DNA of 64,000 nucleotides, taken from NCBI RefSeq assembly GCF_056712565.1, contig NZ_CM160072.1; one strand, written 5' to 3'. Position 1 is the first letter of the stretch. Each line of letters begins with the position of its first letter. This document shows positions 12,001 to 21,000 of the stretch, one piece after another. The position numbers were made by a program.

Positions 12001-15000
12001 CATTTCCATCCTCTTCAAAGAAAAGTAACATAAAGGTAATAAAACATACTACTTTAAGATTTAATTTTACGACTGGTACTGTAATAGAATATAAAATGTA
12101 GCTTTTATTACTCCCCCAAGAAAATCCTTTTATCGTGCAAAGAGGGAGATGTTATATCATCCGATAATATTTTAACATTATCAAAATTCTTTAAAATATC
12201 GAAATGGAGACGCAGCGTATTAATCCCTTTTTGGGATTTATCATTATCACACAACTTTATCATAAGAGGCGCTATTGAATAAGACTGACATCTTTTAGAA
12301 ACTAAAGGTGCATATACCAAAGAAGATGATGTTAATCCAATTAAGTGTTTTATTTTTGCTTTTTTTATTACCGGCTCTATTAAAAAGTCTGGCTCTGTTA
12401 TAAGAATTATGTCACGACATTTTGCCTTTTTTATTGCCTTTTGAATTGCATTAATATTTTTTTTAGGCTCTTTAGGGTGAGGTTTTATAAATATTCTTGC
12501 ATTATCAGGCTTATCTATTCTAAGTAAGATAGAAATTAACGAATCCGCAAATAATGTATGTTCAATCAAATACTTTTGATTTGCATATATTATATCATCT
12601 CTAGTTATAGAATATTTATGGATAACATTATCTATTCTGGTTGATGATTTAACTGATGGAGCACCTTTAAACTCAACAAATTTTTGCGCATTAAATTTTT
12701 TCTTAAGCAAAATTGGATATGTACCGTATACATTTTCAAATTTCAAATCTGGATAATGGAACAAGATAATTGAATTAATAATCTCTGAATAAAAATTAAT
12801 ATTTACTACTGGGTTTTCTTTTTCGGTTTTATAAGTCCCTGTCCCCTCTTCAATTAATGAACATCTTATATTATTTTTTTTGAACAAATATACGAAGATT
12901 GCATAATGTTGCGCATAGCTCATAAAATAAGCATCTTTAGCTTTTGAATTTAAAACTAAATAATTATATACGTTATAAAACCATATAACCTTTTTAAGTG
13001 AAAAAACATTTGGGAAAGTTGGAATGAATAGTACCTTGTATGAAGAAAATAATTTATTATTTATTTGTTCAACAATAATTTTTGGCATCTCAGTATTTTT
13101 TTCAGTTGCCAAAACAATAAGATAGTTACTTCTCTTGCTAAATTTTTGTACAAATGACTCAGCTTTTTTTAATTGCCCCAGGTTACTAATTATAAAAATA
13201 TTTTTACTTTTTATTTTTAACGGTGATAGTAGCTCTTCAGCCTTGTTTTTAGAATTAAAAAACCATGAGTCACGGAAAAACCCAATTGGATTTACAAATA
13301 ATTTCCTCAACTTCTTTAAACTAGCATCAAATATCATCTTTCTTATACCTTAATAAAACTTTATGGATTTTTTTCAATGTTTTTATTTTTTTTGGTCCTA
13401 ATGAGAAAAAGAAATTAAAAAAGATCAAAAACAATATAATCAATGTAGATCTTTTAATTCCAAAAGTCCTAACATTAACATTTGGCGGCATTTTTAAAAT
13501 ATCATTCAAAATCTTATGTTGAATATCCCTAGAGTAATAAAAGTTCTCCTCCATCCATTTTTTTTTAATACGTGGAATGTGTTTAAAATTAAACTTATTA
13601 TAGTCAACAATAAGTCCAGATCTTGAAAAATAACATTGTCCATTGCAAGTATGATTAAATCCATTTATTAAATAAACCTTAATTTTATTAGCCAGACAAT
13701 ATATTGCGACCGAAGAAGATATTGTAATACAATATTCAACTTTAGAAATTAAAGAATCAATATTATCATCGCTAAATGTTATATTTTTCAAATCGAAGCG
13801 TTCAATGTATTCCTTAATATCAAAAACAATTGAGTCTGGTGATATAAGAGGATTTCGAGTTTTAAAAATAAAATTCATATGTGGATGTTTCTGAATTACT
13901 CTAATCAAAAAACGTGCATATTCTATCCTCTTTATTGGCGTCAAGGGTTCATTAACTTGATCAACGATAAGACAAGAATTCTCACTTTTTGCATTGATAT
14001 TGACATTTTTAATCCATGGTGGACCAAAAAGAATTCCATTAAAAGGAACCCCTATTATTTTACAAATTTTTTTATACGTTTTAATATCTTTTGGGGAGTT
14101 AATAAGTAAATAGTGACTATTAGATTTTGAAATAAAAGCTTCTATCTGAGAAGTAAGGACAATGCCAGGAAAACAAGATATAATTATGGTATCTTTTGTT
14201 CTTACAGTATTAACAATTTCATGAAGGTCCTTCCCTCCTGTTGAACAAAAAATAAACTCAATATTAATAAAAGTGAAAAAACAAACAAAGTCATCAGGAT
14301 AGAATACAACTATCTTTTCATCTAAATTTTTTTTTACAAACTCTTGTAGAGAATTATCCAAGCAGCAAAAAAATAAATCATATGAATCAACATCTATCTG
14401 CTCAAAAATATTTTTCAAAGCTAAAAAATGAGAATCATAACGAAAGACAAAACAAAGCACTTTTTTTCTAGTCATAACTGGTGGTACATTCCGGGATGTC
14501 ATAAAAATCTTTGTAATCTTTATTTTTTGATTTAATAAAATCCTTAATAATTCTAACAGCATTAATTAAAGCATTTTCTTTAAAATAAGGATTACTAGAT
14601 GACTGTACAACACTAATAAATTTTTCATCTTGAGATATATTTATCCCTCTGACGATTGCATTTTTTTCAACGGGTACATCTATTACACTGGCTCCACGAA
14701 CACGGCCTTTCTGCCTATCACCAATGTTAATTGTTGCAACTTTTAAAGATGGAACCTCAATTAAACCAGAGGAGGAGTTCCCAATTAGCCCACAAGAGTA
14801 TTTAATCATTGCCAAATAATCTTCTGAACGAATAGAAATCAAATATCTGAACTTATACTCTTTGCAAAAATATTTTACTTTTCTCTGAATTATATCAGAA
14901 CCAGTGTCAGCGTTACTGCCAATAAAAATAAAGTCGTGAGTATTTTTAAAAAAAGAAATCGCTGACAATAACTCATCTATTTGATCATTAACCGACTGCG

Positions 15001-18000: not shown

Positions 18001-21000
18001 TTACAACCGACCCAGAACCAATAATACTCTTTGAGCCTAGCTTCAACTGGCCATTTACAACAGTACAGCTACCAACAAAAGTTTCTTCTCCAACAGAAAC
18101 ATCACCATTAAGTACAACATTAGTAGAGATATTGCTACAGCAGCCTATTTCATTACCATGTTCAATTAAACTCCTAGTATTTATTACAACGGCATCATGT
18201 ATTCTAGTATCACGGTTAAGTATACACATTTTACCAATAAAAATTCCATCACCCAGTATAATATTTGGTGATAGAATAGCAGTTTTATCTATAATGTTAA
18301 TTAAGCGTAGATTATGTTTTCTTATGATGTTTAAATAGTGCTTCCTAGTTGATGGTTTGCCTATCCCAATAAAATAATAATAATTATCCTTATTCTCGAT
18401 GTCTGCAATATCATTACCTAATATTGGATATGATTGATGATAACCACTTTTATATTTATCGATAAATCCTATTAACTCGTAATGTTTATGATTTAAGCTG
18501 TCAATTATAGATTTTGAAAAACCACCCGCACCAAATATTATTAACTTTTTACTCATGATATGTCTCAGTTAAATATTTCCAAGGCATAATATTGGAATGT
18601 AACCACTATAGGTCTTTTTTGTAATCAGCAATGGCTTCCGTAACATTTTTATAAAATTTACCTTGCCCCTCTTTGTTAAGATAAATAGCAACATCACAAT
18701 ACTCCTTTAAAGCTCGTTCACTATGTGACACCATTATTAAATGAGATTTTTCTCTTATTTTATCGAATATATCTGAACATTTCTTTTTAAACTTTGCGTC
18801 TCCAACAGCAGTGATTTCATCAATAAGATAATAGTCGAATTTAAAAGCCATACTTAATCCAAAAGCTAACCTTGACCTCATGCCAGAAGAATAAGTTTTA
18901 ATGGGCATATCGAAATATTTTCCGAGTTCGGAAAACTCTTCAACAAAATCAACCCTCTCATTTAACTCATCGCGTTTTGCATATAGTCGGGCAACAAATT
19001 TAACATTTTCACGACCGGTTAAACTTCCTTGAAATCCACCAGCCAATCCAACGGGCCATGAAATTTTATGTTCTGTAATAATGTTCCCACTATCAGGACG
19101 ATCTATACCACCAATTATCCGAAGTAAAGTTGATTTACCGGCTCCATTTTGACCAATCAGGGCAATGTTATAGCCTTTAGGAAAAATAATATTCAAATTT
19201 TTAAAAACATAATGCCGCCCAGTGGGCGTGCGATAAGACTTCGTCAAATTCTCAATCTTAATCATGATGTCAGCATTGCCTCTTCACGCGTTCGGTATAA
19301 TGCCAGGCCGATGAACAGGGTGACCAGAGTAAACATTGCAAGGTAGTTCAGACTCACGCCTTCACTGATATAGCCAGGCATAACTGCCTCGCGGCTTAAC
19401 TCCACAACATGCACTAATGGGTTCCAGAGTAGATATGACCAGTATTGTTTTGGAATCGAGTGTAGAGGGAACATGATGCAGGAGATGAAATACAGCGGCT
19501 TAAGCAGTATCGGCAGGACCTTTTGCATTTCAGGAAAGGTTTTACCAACGACCATAAATATTAAGCCGACGCCACATGAAAGAATGATTAACAAACTCCA
19601 GGTGAGCACAAGTTGTAAAAAGTTTGTAATTTCGAAATATTCGCCTGTCATCCAGACGATAAGCATGAGCAAAATATAAACAGCAACGTAAATCAGTGTC
19701 TCAAGCAGTGCACGTGCAATGATCGTATCGATGGGTTTTACTGGTCGATAATTAAACAGTCCCTGGTTCGCTTCAATAGCACCAATAGAACGTTTGCTAA
19801 TACTACTAAAGATAAAAAAGGGAATCAGGCCATTAAGTAAAAACACCGGGAACGAGATGTCTGGCATAGTGCGGTGCATAACGTAACCCAAAATTCCCAA
19901 CAGTATCAGCAAATGCGCGGAGGGTTCAAGAATCGCCCACAAATACCCCAGACGAAACTTACCAAAGCGTGTTCGTATTTCTCGTAGAAATAATGCCTCT
20001 ACGGTGACTTTCTGAACTTCAAATCCACTTCTTGCCATTTGATGATGTGATCCTAATCTCTTCAGGTACGCTACCGCCCTTGGCTTAACAGCTACCAATA
20101 CACTGGAGGTAATACTTGTTTGTAACTGGATAAAATTTACTCAGACGGTTTGACCTTTTTAATAGCCGCAAAAAAATTTCAGCAGAAATTATTTCCGCAG
20201 GGATAAATAGATCTATTTCCGTCTCGTTTCTTCTAATCCATTCTTCAGGCATGAATGTATTCGGTCTTCTGGTAATTTCAGAAAACTGGCCGTTTTAGAA
20301 TGCAGAGTTAATTTCTCAGGAAATTATTTTTTGTTATTACTGTTAACTACTTGATTATAATATCCCCTATGGATTTTATGCGTAACAACACTTGCAATCT
20401 GTTTCAAACCAGAACGCACGCGATTGATTACCAATAAATTATTCACCGAGAAACTATTTCCCTATTTAAAATTCACTCGTGTACTTCTTATTTATATCTA
20501 CAGCCCCCTCTTTACAGCCATATTTGTGATTTATATCACATTTAAATGGTGTTATTTAAGTTGCATCAATAATCCCGAAGGTAATTATTTTCGTCGATTA
20601 AAATATACATCTTGATTATTTTGTGTATTTATTTTAACCAGTGTTACAACCAACACCATCCCTCAGTAGATATACCTGAGCAGACATTTCTTAAAATCGA
20701 CGAATAGTTTCCCTGGAAATTATTATGCTTATTTGAAATTCCCTTTCTGATTATCTCCTGTAATTTTACTAATTTCCAGGCTACACAAAATACAGATCAC
20801 ATAAGAATTATCCTATATGTTTTGACCTATCAATTGTTACTCAATGATTTATTACAACTATTAATAATCATAATGTATCAAAACACTTAAGCATCTTTAC
20901 AGTCTTAGAAAGATGTCGATTAACGAAGGCTACATGGTGAAAAACAGGTTCCTTCAGTGTTACCGAATATTCCGTGGTGGTCTGGAGGGAGATAATTCTT

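Follow-up and report, generated by a model that had tools for sequence, protein, structure and literature searches.

Region 2 (neuDBACES) of an Escherichia coli K1 group 2 capsule locus and the edges of its low-GC, serotype-linked block

The minus-strand stretch at 12108-18556 of the DNA analysed here (a window of 64,000 nucleotides from contig NZ_CM160072.1 of RefSeq assembly GCF_056712565.1) is almost certainly region 2 (neuDBACES) of an Escherichia coli K1 group 2 capsule locus. Six intact open reading frames, all on the minus strand, lie there in the order neuD-B-A-C-E-S, and the Pfam matches of all six proteins exceed the curated cut-offs, which bears out the gene content that an earlier, sequence-only reading of this DNA had proposed (Table 1). 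The region 2 DNA is 100% identical to that of serotyped O1:K1:H7 and O2:K1:H7 strains and of UTI89, and 6.7 kb with 100% identity is also found in ATCC 11775 and in the lineage of the K-12/K1 hybrid EV36. A mimic of host polysialic acid, the K1 capsule ranks among the main determinants of meningitis in newborns, of sepsis and of avian colibacillosis, so its recognition marks the window as DNA of an invasive-type (ST95-like) E. coli.

The locus reads kpsFEDUCS / neuSECABD / kpsTM, and JUMPstart/ops precedes kpsM; region 1 on one side, a convergent region 3 and region 2 between them complete the plan of a group 2 locus. The K1 kps/neu clusters of UTI89, APEC O1:K1:H7, ATCC 11775 and PA45B have the identical gene order and a region 2 without any difference, and their regions 1 and 3, JUMPstart element, per-gene GC and gsp/yghD flank all match the window. 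The neu block was found in 334 of 5,426 complete E. coli genomes, as against some 1,829 for region 3. The locus has been reported as linked to pheV; a tRNA scan of the whole window found no tRNA gene.

Table 1. Features of the capsule locus in the window.
Feature	Position	Strand	Description
Region 1	4041-11958	+	Conserved export and lipid-linker genes; RefSeq annotation of identical locus
kpsF	4041-5024	+	Region 1
kpsE	5096-6244	+	Region 1
kpsD	6268-7944	+	Region 1
kpsU	7954-8694	+	Region 1
kpsC	8691-10718	+	Region 1
kpsS	10753-11958	+	Region 1
Spacer between convergent kpsS and neuS	11959-12107	.	149 nt, 24% GC, inside serotype-specific segment
neuS	12108-13337	-	Alpha-2,8 polysialyltransferase, 409 aa, K1 allele; PF07388, E 2.7e-44
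neuE	13327-14475	-	DUF6716, putative glycosyltransferase, 382 aa from RefSeq start
neuC	14468-15643	-	UDP-GlcNAc 2-epimerase (to ManNAc); PF02350 (Epimerase_2), E 2.6e-71; RefSeq name
neuA	15640-16896	-	CMP-sialic acid synthetase; PF02348 (CTP_transf_3), E 6.1e-28
neuB	16896-17936	-	N-acetylneuraminate synthase; PF03102, E 2.5e-86, and SAF domain; RefSeq name
neuD	17933-18556	-	Hexapeptide-repeat acyltransferase-family protein; PF17836 (PglD_N), E 4.7e-18, and Hexapep
kpsT	18606-19265	-	ABC-transporter ATPase, PF00005; K1/K92-linked allele
kpsM	19262-20038	-	ABC-transporter permease, PF01061
JUMPstart element	20067-20105	-	Rfam RF01707, 58.5 bits (gathering score 35), E 7.2e-11
AT-rich leader and region 3 promoter (PR3) area	20106-21095	-	Between gspM (yghD) and kpsM; 35% GC

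The roles of these enzyme families in the polysialic acid pathway are established knowledge. NeuC converts UDP-GlcNAc to ManNAc, from which, with PEP, NeuB forms Neu5Ac, and NeuA, which also carries a C-terminal GDSL esterase domain (PF13472, E 4.6e-13), then yields CMP-Neu5Ac. KpsS and KpsC of region 1 build a lipid-Kdo primer, and NeuS, together with NeuE, KpsS and KpsC, polymerises CMP-Neu5Ac into alpha-2,8 polysialic acid for export by KpsMT and KpsED. NeuE, described elsewhere as a 'putative sialyltransferase' (PMC5517516), is putatively the protein that primes or initiates polysialylation; the longest open reading frame of neuE reaches 14562, with no Shine-Dalgarno site at that start. 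Long antisense reading frames within neuD (147 aa) and neuB (123 aa) are unannotated in RefSeq and are probably spurious.

The overlapping stops and starts that had been described through the cassette are real, measuring 4 nt for neuD/neuB, 1 nt for neuB/neuA, 4 nt for neuA/neuC, 8 nt for neuC/neuE and 11 nt for neuE/neuS. kpsM and kpsT overlap by a further 4 nt, and the 49 nt between kpsT and neuD form the only spacer among these junctions. From these overlaps, translational coupling along the cassette is likely. It is not required for neuB, neuA and neuC, since each has a strong Shine-Dalgarno site of its own (-9.3, -9.4 and -6.6 kcal/mol, respectively), and would count most for neuE and neuS, whose ribosome-binding sites are weak.

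At the level of transcription, the ops sequence GGCGGTAG lies within the JUMPstart element at 20071-20078, beginning 40 nt and ending 32 nt upstream of the kpsM ATG. JUMPstart/ops is known to recruit RfaH, which lets transcripts begun at the region 3 promoter continue into region 2; in K5 this promoter was reported 741 bp upstream of kpsM, and expression from the promoters of both region 1 and region 3 is thermoregulated, with H-NS, SlyA, BipA and RfaH involved (PMC8960920). On this literature model, RfaH would be recruited upstream of kpsM and the six neu genes would be transcribed as the distal part of a kpsM-kpsT-neu transcript. No promoter of their own was evident for the neu genes, but internal promoters may be present: a scan of 11800-21200 gave 42 sites against 48.7 expected and has little power in DNA as AT-rich as this. 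Nor does the spacer between kpsS and neuS contain a convincing terminator hairpin (fold z = 0.40 against shuffled sequences, and nothing in a terminator scan); in strain SMS-3-5 the same spacer holds IS remnants.

Region 2 is strongly AT-rich, as had been noted from the sequence. Taken as a whole it has 29.9% GC; its genes individually range from 26.3% (neuE, the lowest of the six) to 32.5%, and their GC3 is 0.20-0.25; published per-gene values are the same as ours (neuC 32.1, neuE 26.3 and neuS 27.5%; PMC5654933). Region 1 stands at 50.3%, the gsp operon at 55.5% and the remainder of the window at 50.9%, and 844 segments of the same length taken outside the locus have a mean of 51.7% (sd 2.4, minimum 45.9), so that region 2 is lower by some 9 sd and far below both its flanks. 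The long A/T runs and the richness in Lys, Asn and Ile that had been claimed are likewise present: runs of at least 5 occur at 14.3/kb in region 2, where their number (92) is twice that in composition-matched shuffles (44.8, sd 6.2), and at 2.7-4.0/kb in region 1, in the gsp operon and in the remainder of the window. The three residues together account for 24.5-32.2% of each Neu protein and for 12-18% of the region 1 proteins.

The same reading had described the flanking kps regions 1 and 3 as GC-balanced, which holds for region 1 but not for region 3, where GC is 39.5% (kpsT 34.8%, kpsM 43.4%) and A/T runs reach 7.0/kb; the leader with the promoter area, 1,057 nt from kpsM to gspM, has only 35.2% GC. 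Since region 3 and the leader are thus also AT-rich, low GC spans from about 11,900 to about 20,950, with an abrupt change towards region 1 and a gradual one towards region 3.

The serotype-linked part of this stretch can be delimited by comparison with the non-sialic group 2 loci of strain 042 and of an ST131 strain, which lie at the same chromosomal site beside gsp and have regions 1 and 3 and the JUMPstart-containing leader in common with the window, whereas the gene content of their region 2 is unrelated. Region 1 genes are 92-99% identical in DNA to those of non-K1 group 2 loci up to window position 11924, where homology breaks, to resume at 18684, which places the block at approximately 11925 to 18683. 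kpsM is 94-95% identical across K types, whereas kpsT is only about 70% identical in DNA and 72% in protein to non-sialic group 2 kpsT, with homology lost over its last 78 nt; the C-termini of KpsS differ as well. As drawn from these alignments, the block extends into the 3' end of kpsS and includes the kpsT allele.

Its very low GC marks the serotype-linked block as compositionally different in history from region 1 and the core genome, and fits the foreign origin that had been suggested for the cassette. A donor search by NeuS alignment against 100,044 species-representative genomes found no donor, the relatives (in Alcaligenaceae, Actinobacillus, Helicobacter rodentium, Bisgaardia, Bordetella ansorpii, Psychrobacter and Mannheimia) being only 24-38% identical. 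A 'Collinsella' MAG contig that was also matched is in fact E. coli K1 DNA.

The composition can be read in another way, which we think possible though doubtful: that low GC is a long-maintained property of region 2 and kpsT DNA, and not the footprint of a recent foreign acquisition. It would then be kept by selection (for example through H-NS binding, or RfaH-dependent, temperature-controlled expression) or by continual exchange inside an AT-rich cassette pool common to the Enterobacteriaceae. In its favour, the unrelated region 2 cassettes of strain 042 and the ST131 strain are equally AT-rich (29.1% and 31.6% GC), no low-GC donor species appeared among the species-representative genomes, in which the nearest NeuS is at most 38% identical, and control of the locus by H-NS and RfaH is known (PMC8960920). 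The pattern is repeated, moreover, in a diverged neu cassette with Atlantibacter hermannii-like flanks, where neu, kpsS and kpsMT at 29-38% GC lie beside kpsCDEF at 53-58%. This locus is fully syntenic (kpsMT-neuDBACES-kpsSCDEF), and its proteins are 47-81% identical to the Neu proteins of the window, NeuS being 64% identical and retaining Asn at the position equivalent to 52; the flank of the contig (L006) had no match among E. coli genomes and led by protein search to Atlantibacter hermannii. Long maintenance bears on timing and upkeep only, however, and is compatible with an ancient foreign origin, while the GC3 values would also be expected from mutational or donor bias. With the same reserve, we offer as a tentative and not the most probable view that AT-richness is a stable trait of a polysialic cassette moving among the Enterobacteriaceae with its own kpsT alleles, and not the scar of a single transfer; in other hosts the kpsS and kpsM alleles may travel along.

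The predicted surface product of the K1 locus is an alpha-2,8-linked Neu5Ac homopolymer. That the cluster is intact and the capsule nonetheless not made, through silencing or through mutations elsewhere, is very unlikely. A frameshift private to the window is present in a neighbouring operon, namely a 1-nt homopolymer contraction in gspL (T7 to T6, at 21977-21982) that may be a mutation or a sequencing error, from which it follows that the strain or its assembly contains lesions; it lies outside the capsule locus and is the sole private difference seen against K1 clusters. Against a silent locus, all 14 kps/neu reading frames are full length, the JUMPstart element is present, complete K1 genomes are 100% identical to the window over 1-12100 and, likewise, over 12000-18700, and 1-19265, including kpsT, matches HS13-1 without difference. 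For kpsM and JUMPstart (19262-20105) the base-by-base comparison was with APEC E16002 only, which is identical to the window over 7918-20440. HS13-1 differs from the window by one substitution beyond 19265; because E16002 is identical up to 20440, we place this substitution beyond 20440 and hence outside kpsM and JUMPstart.

The sequence-only reading had left the capsule as K1 or K92, and it is neuS that separates the two. NeuS groups with the polysialyltransferases, scoring 152.4 bits against PF07388 (cut-off 23.3) and matching the polysialyltransferase structures PDB 5WCN/5WC6 (E 1.6e-38). Its residues Glu164, His287 and Ser337/Ser338 align with Glu153, His291 and Ser339/Thr340 of the Mannheimia haemolytica polysialyltransferase MhPST, the catalytic residue roles of which have been described (PMC5517516), and E163-E164 aligns with E152/E153. 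E163-E164-G165, H287-P288 and S337 are invariant in an alignment of 14 sequences of the family. In the enzymes of M. haemolytica A2 and other bacteria, the EEG motif, the HP motif and the phosphate-binding Ser/Thr pair are conserved; in sequence these enzymes are only about 30% identical, and their capsule loci are organised differently.

Gene content alone cannot split K1 from K92, because gene order is the same in K92 loci, where all genes but neuS are more than 98% identical (see also PMC13094856). The K92 clusters of SMS-3-5 and of the French O77:K92:H18 outbreak strain share the architecture, with kpsMT and neuDBAC at least 99% and neuE 98% identical (kpsT 100% in SMS-3-5), but differ in neuS (86% in DNA, 82% in protein), and the K92 enzyme makes alternating 2,8/2,9 linkages. 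Serotyped K1 strains have exactly the neuS allele of the window (100% identity), whereas that of SMS-3-5 is only 86.3% identical to it in DNA and 82% in protein. The window allele encodes Asn at residue 52, where the K92 type has His; an H52N change was reported to be enough to turn a K92 into a K1 phenotype (PMC13094856). A K92-type neuS is defined by about 87% DNA identity to K1 together with His52, a definition that the Asn52 allele of the window falls outside. Among the genomes searched, neuS alleles are at least 99% identical in 310 and 80-90% identical in 14. With a K1-identical neuS and Asn52, a K92 capsule of alternating alpha-2,8/alpha-2,9 polysialic acid is exceedingly improbable and is rejected at the sequence level, so that the choice left open between the two types is settled, from sequence, as K1 and not K92.

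Region 2 here is a real but ordinary and well-known gene block. Earlier publications cover the locus, how AT-rich it is, how it is regulated and which residue tells K1 from K92, and the K1 locus itself adds nothing biologically new. What is useful is the call of K1, and not K92, from sequence, the corrected edges of the low-GC, serotype-linked block and, further, the sight of diverged neu cassettes in another genus. Should it be true that an AT-rich polysialic cassette moves among the Enterobacteriaceae, one would expect a polysialic acid capsule, as yet undescribed, beyond E. coli.

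Six intact open reading frames lie on the minus strand between positions 12108 and 18556 of the window, and Pfam places all six in the families expected of neuDBACES, bearing out the gene content proposed in the sequence-only reading. In the identical RefSeq locus, kpsFEDUCS is followed on the opposite strand by neuSECABD and kpsTM, and then by yghD/gspM to gspC, pppA and sslE. The stretch 12000-18700 is 100% identical in many complete genomes, including those of O1:K1:H7 and O2:K1:H7 avian pathogenic strains, UTI89, ATCC 11775 and the EV36 lineage, and the neu block is found in 334 of 5,426 complete E. 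coli genomes, single-copy and chromosomal in every case. The locus is among the best studied in E. coli and the finding is already known. Two plus-strand ORFs facing neuD and neuB, unusually long despite the AT-richness and without RefSeq annotation, are probably spurious.

Features of the capsule locus and of other parts of the window, with gene junctions in the direction of neu transcription
Feature	Position	Strand	Assignment	Junction with next gene
JUMPstart	20067-20105	-	Rfam RF01707, 58.5 bits; upstream of kpsM	
ops GGCGGTAG	20071-20078		inside JUMPstart	
kpsM		-	ABC-2 permease (Pfam)	kpsT, 4-nt overlap
kpsT	18606-19265	-	ABC ATPase (Pfam)	neuD, 49-nt gap
neuD	17933-18556	-	PglD_N + hexapeptide acyltransferase (Pfam)	neuB, 4-nt overlap (ATGA)
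neuB	16896-17936	-	NeuB + SAF domains (Pfam)	neuA, 1-nt overlap (TAATG)
neuA	15640-16896	-	cytidylyltransferase + GDSL esterase domain (Pfam)	neuC, 4-nt overlap
neuC	14468-15643	-	UDP-GlcNAc 2-epimerase (Pfam)	neuE, 8-nt overlap
neuE	13327-14475 (RefSeq start; longest ORF to 14562)	-	DUF6716, putative glycosyltransferase (Pfam)	neuS, 11-nt overlap
neuS	12108-13337	-	alpha-2,8-polysialyltransferase family, Pfam PF07388, 152 bits	
Antisense ORF	17895-18338	+	147 aa; probably spurious	
Antisense ORF	17326-17697	+	123 aa; probably spurious	
IS110-family transposase remnant	~3050-3231		short; annotated in identical RefSeq locus	
gspL	~21634-22811	-	divided into ORFs 21969-22811 and 21634-22227	
C0719 small RNA	39830-40051	+	Rfam RF00117, 291 bits; full-length match	

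The capsule had been read as either K1 or K92, and of these the first stands and the second does not. In K92 loci every neu gene is >98% identical to K1 save neuS (87%), and K92 NeuS carries His52, a single H52N change giving a K1-positive phenotype (PMC13094856). In the genome collection the neuS alleles form two groups, with 310 genomes at at least 99% identity and 14 at 80-90%. The neuS of the K92-type strain SMS-3-5 belongs to the latter group and shares 86.3% (DNA) and 82% (protein) identity with that of the window; the strain's remaining genes are 98-100% identical, and where its NeuS reads ...IVVHLGQL... the window has ...IISNLGQL..., in which residue 52 is Asn. Because of the neuS identities and Asn52, the window is K1 in sequence; K92 is ruled out at that level by Asn52 and the divergence of neuS. 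NeuS is indeed a member of the polysialyltransferase family, a point singled out beforehand as a test of the reading: besides its PF07388 match, it matches a polysialyltransferase of known structure, MhPST from Mannheimia haemolytica (E 1.6e-38). The catalytic base of MhPST (E152/E153) aligns with NeuS E163/E164-G165, the catalytic acid (H291) with H287-P288, and S339/T340 with S337/S338; these residues are invariant in a 14-sequence alignment.

Going by enzyme families and the cited literature, NeuC, NeuB and NeuA would produce CMP-Neu5Ac, to be polymerised by NeuS, with NeuE proposed for priming, and the lipid-linked polymer would be exported by KpsMT and KpsED. A review puts the region 3 promoter (PR3) ~741 bp upstream of kpsM and describes RfaH at ops as essential to read-through into region 2 (PMC8960920); a promoter consensus scan is uninformative in DNA this AT-rich. 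Stops and starts overlap from neuD to neuS, as had been noted. Shine-Dalgarno matches within the preceding gene are good for neuB, neuA and neuC (-9.3, -9.4 and -6.6 kcal/mol) and weak for neuE and neuS (-3.5 and -4.0 kcal/mol), and translational coupling is plausible, above all for neuE and neuS.

A 1-kb composition profile has a single deep trough, at GC 0.26-0.33 across 12,001-19,000, and GC stays low to 21,000 (0.34), one bin at 0.42 excepted; elsewhere in the window, values are mostly 0.44-0.59. Region 2 has a GC content of 29.9% (26.3-32.5% per gene; GC3 0.20-0.25), region 1 50.3% and the gsp operon 55.5%. Since the other 6,449-nt windows (n = 844) average 51.7% (sd 2.4, minimum 45.9%), region 2 falls ~9 sd below them, and its strong AT-richness is confirmed. 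Published values for strain PA45B (neuC 32.1, neuE 26.3, neuS 27.5%) equal those of the window (PMC5654933). Lys, Asn and Ile make up 24.5-32% of the Neu proteins versus 12-18% of region 1 proteins, and A/T homopolymers of at least 5 nt number 14.3/kb, twice the count in composition-matched shuffles, versus 2.7-4.0/kb in region 1, the gsp operon and the remainder of the window; region 3 has 7.0/kb. The stretch 3000-4040, upstream of kpsF, has low GC (38%) and holds the region 1 promoter area.

Region 3, although described as GC-balanced, is not: kpsM has 43.4% GC, the 1,057-nt leader between kpsM and gspM 35.2%, and kpsT 34.8% versus 39-40% in its non-sialic counterparts. Two non-sialic group 2 loci, one from strain 042 and the other from an ST131 strain, were set against the window. 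Homology in region 1 ends at 11924, 35 nt short of the kpsS stop codon, and returns at 18684, 78 nt inside the kpsT 3' end; the C-termini of KpsS and KpsT are serotype-specific. While kpsM retains 94-95% DNA identity to non-sialic group 2 loci, the adjacent kpsT retains ~70% (72% in protein; L003 and L004), indicating a recombination boundary near the kpsM/kpsT junction. The K92-type strain carries the K1-type kpsT at 100% identity, and E. coli EC28 has it too, in a variant neu locus. Given these break points and the divergence of kpsT, the serotype-linked unit, distinct in composition and phylogeny, is larger than 12108-18556; strictly it spans 11925-18683, and loosely it extends through kpsT to ~19265. 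The EC28 locus (L005, 15619-17985), in the 95-99% identity class of region 2, has a shorter neuE (1,101 nt) and a 36-nt gap before neuS versus the overlap in the window.

The closest complete genome over the 64 kb, HS13-1, differs by a 1-nt indel, in the T-run at 21977-21982, and by one substitution, which was deduced from alignment scores rather than pinned by base-by-base comparison and lies beyond 19265. As APEC E16002 shows no difference from the window over 7918-20440, the substitution is most likely beyond 20440, outside kpsM and JUMPstart. The T-run is contracted from T7 to T6 relative to every close genome, and this stretch of gspL has no ungapped match in the 5,426 complete E. coli genomes; the contraction is a sequencing error or else a real frameshift, which would inactivate the type II secretion system. 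C0719 falls within the core-genome portion of the window.

A donor search with NeuS among 100,044 species-representative genomes found none, the nearest relatives outside E. coli being 24-38% identical. A large protein database holds homologues at 58-64% identity, on contigs where kpsMT-neuDBACES is fully syntenic, with kpsSCDEF next in one case. On a 17-kb contig (L006; Logan ERR14962513_525, 1-17282), kpsMT-neuDBACES-kpsSCDEF is diverged and fully syntenic, without kpsU; its NeuS (64% identical to that of the window; NeuB 81%, NeuE 47%) retains Asn at the equivalent of residue 52. Its flank, which matches no E. coli DNA, carries a LysR-family gene with 99% identity to an Atlantibacter hermannii protein; the literature searched holds no link between hermannii and polysialic acid. 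Diverged syntenic neu loci also occur on contigs L007, L008 and L009. A 6.6-kb contig labelled 'MAG: Collinsella sp.' (L010; JAIJJM010000121.1) encodes a fragment of NeuS with 100% identity to the E. coli K1 protein and is almost certainly E. coli DNA that was misbinned.

Region 2 is equally AT-rich in the other two K types compared, those of strain 042 and the ST131 strain (29.1% and 31.6% GC), and low GC is general to group 2 region 2 cassettes, not peculiar to K1. L006 repeats the pattern of the window, its neu genes, kpsS and kpsMT (29-38%) adjoining kpsCDEF (53-58%), so that low GC has been kept across cassettes diverged to 47-81% protein identity. A foreign origin of the cassette may reasonably be inferred, if unproven, and an old, maintained compositional state fits at least as well as recent import.
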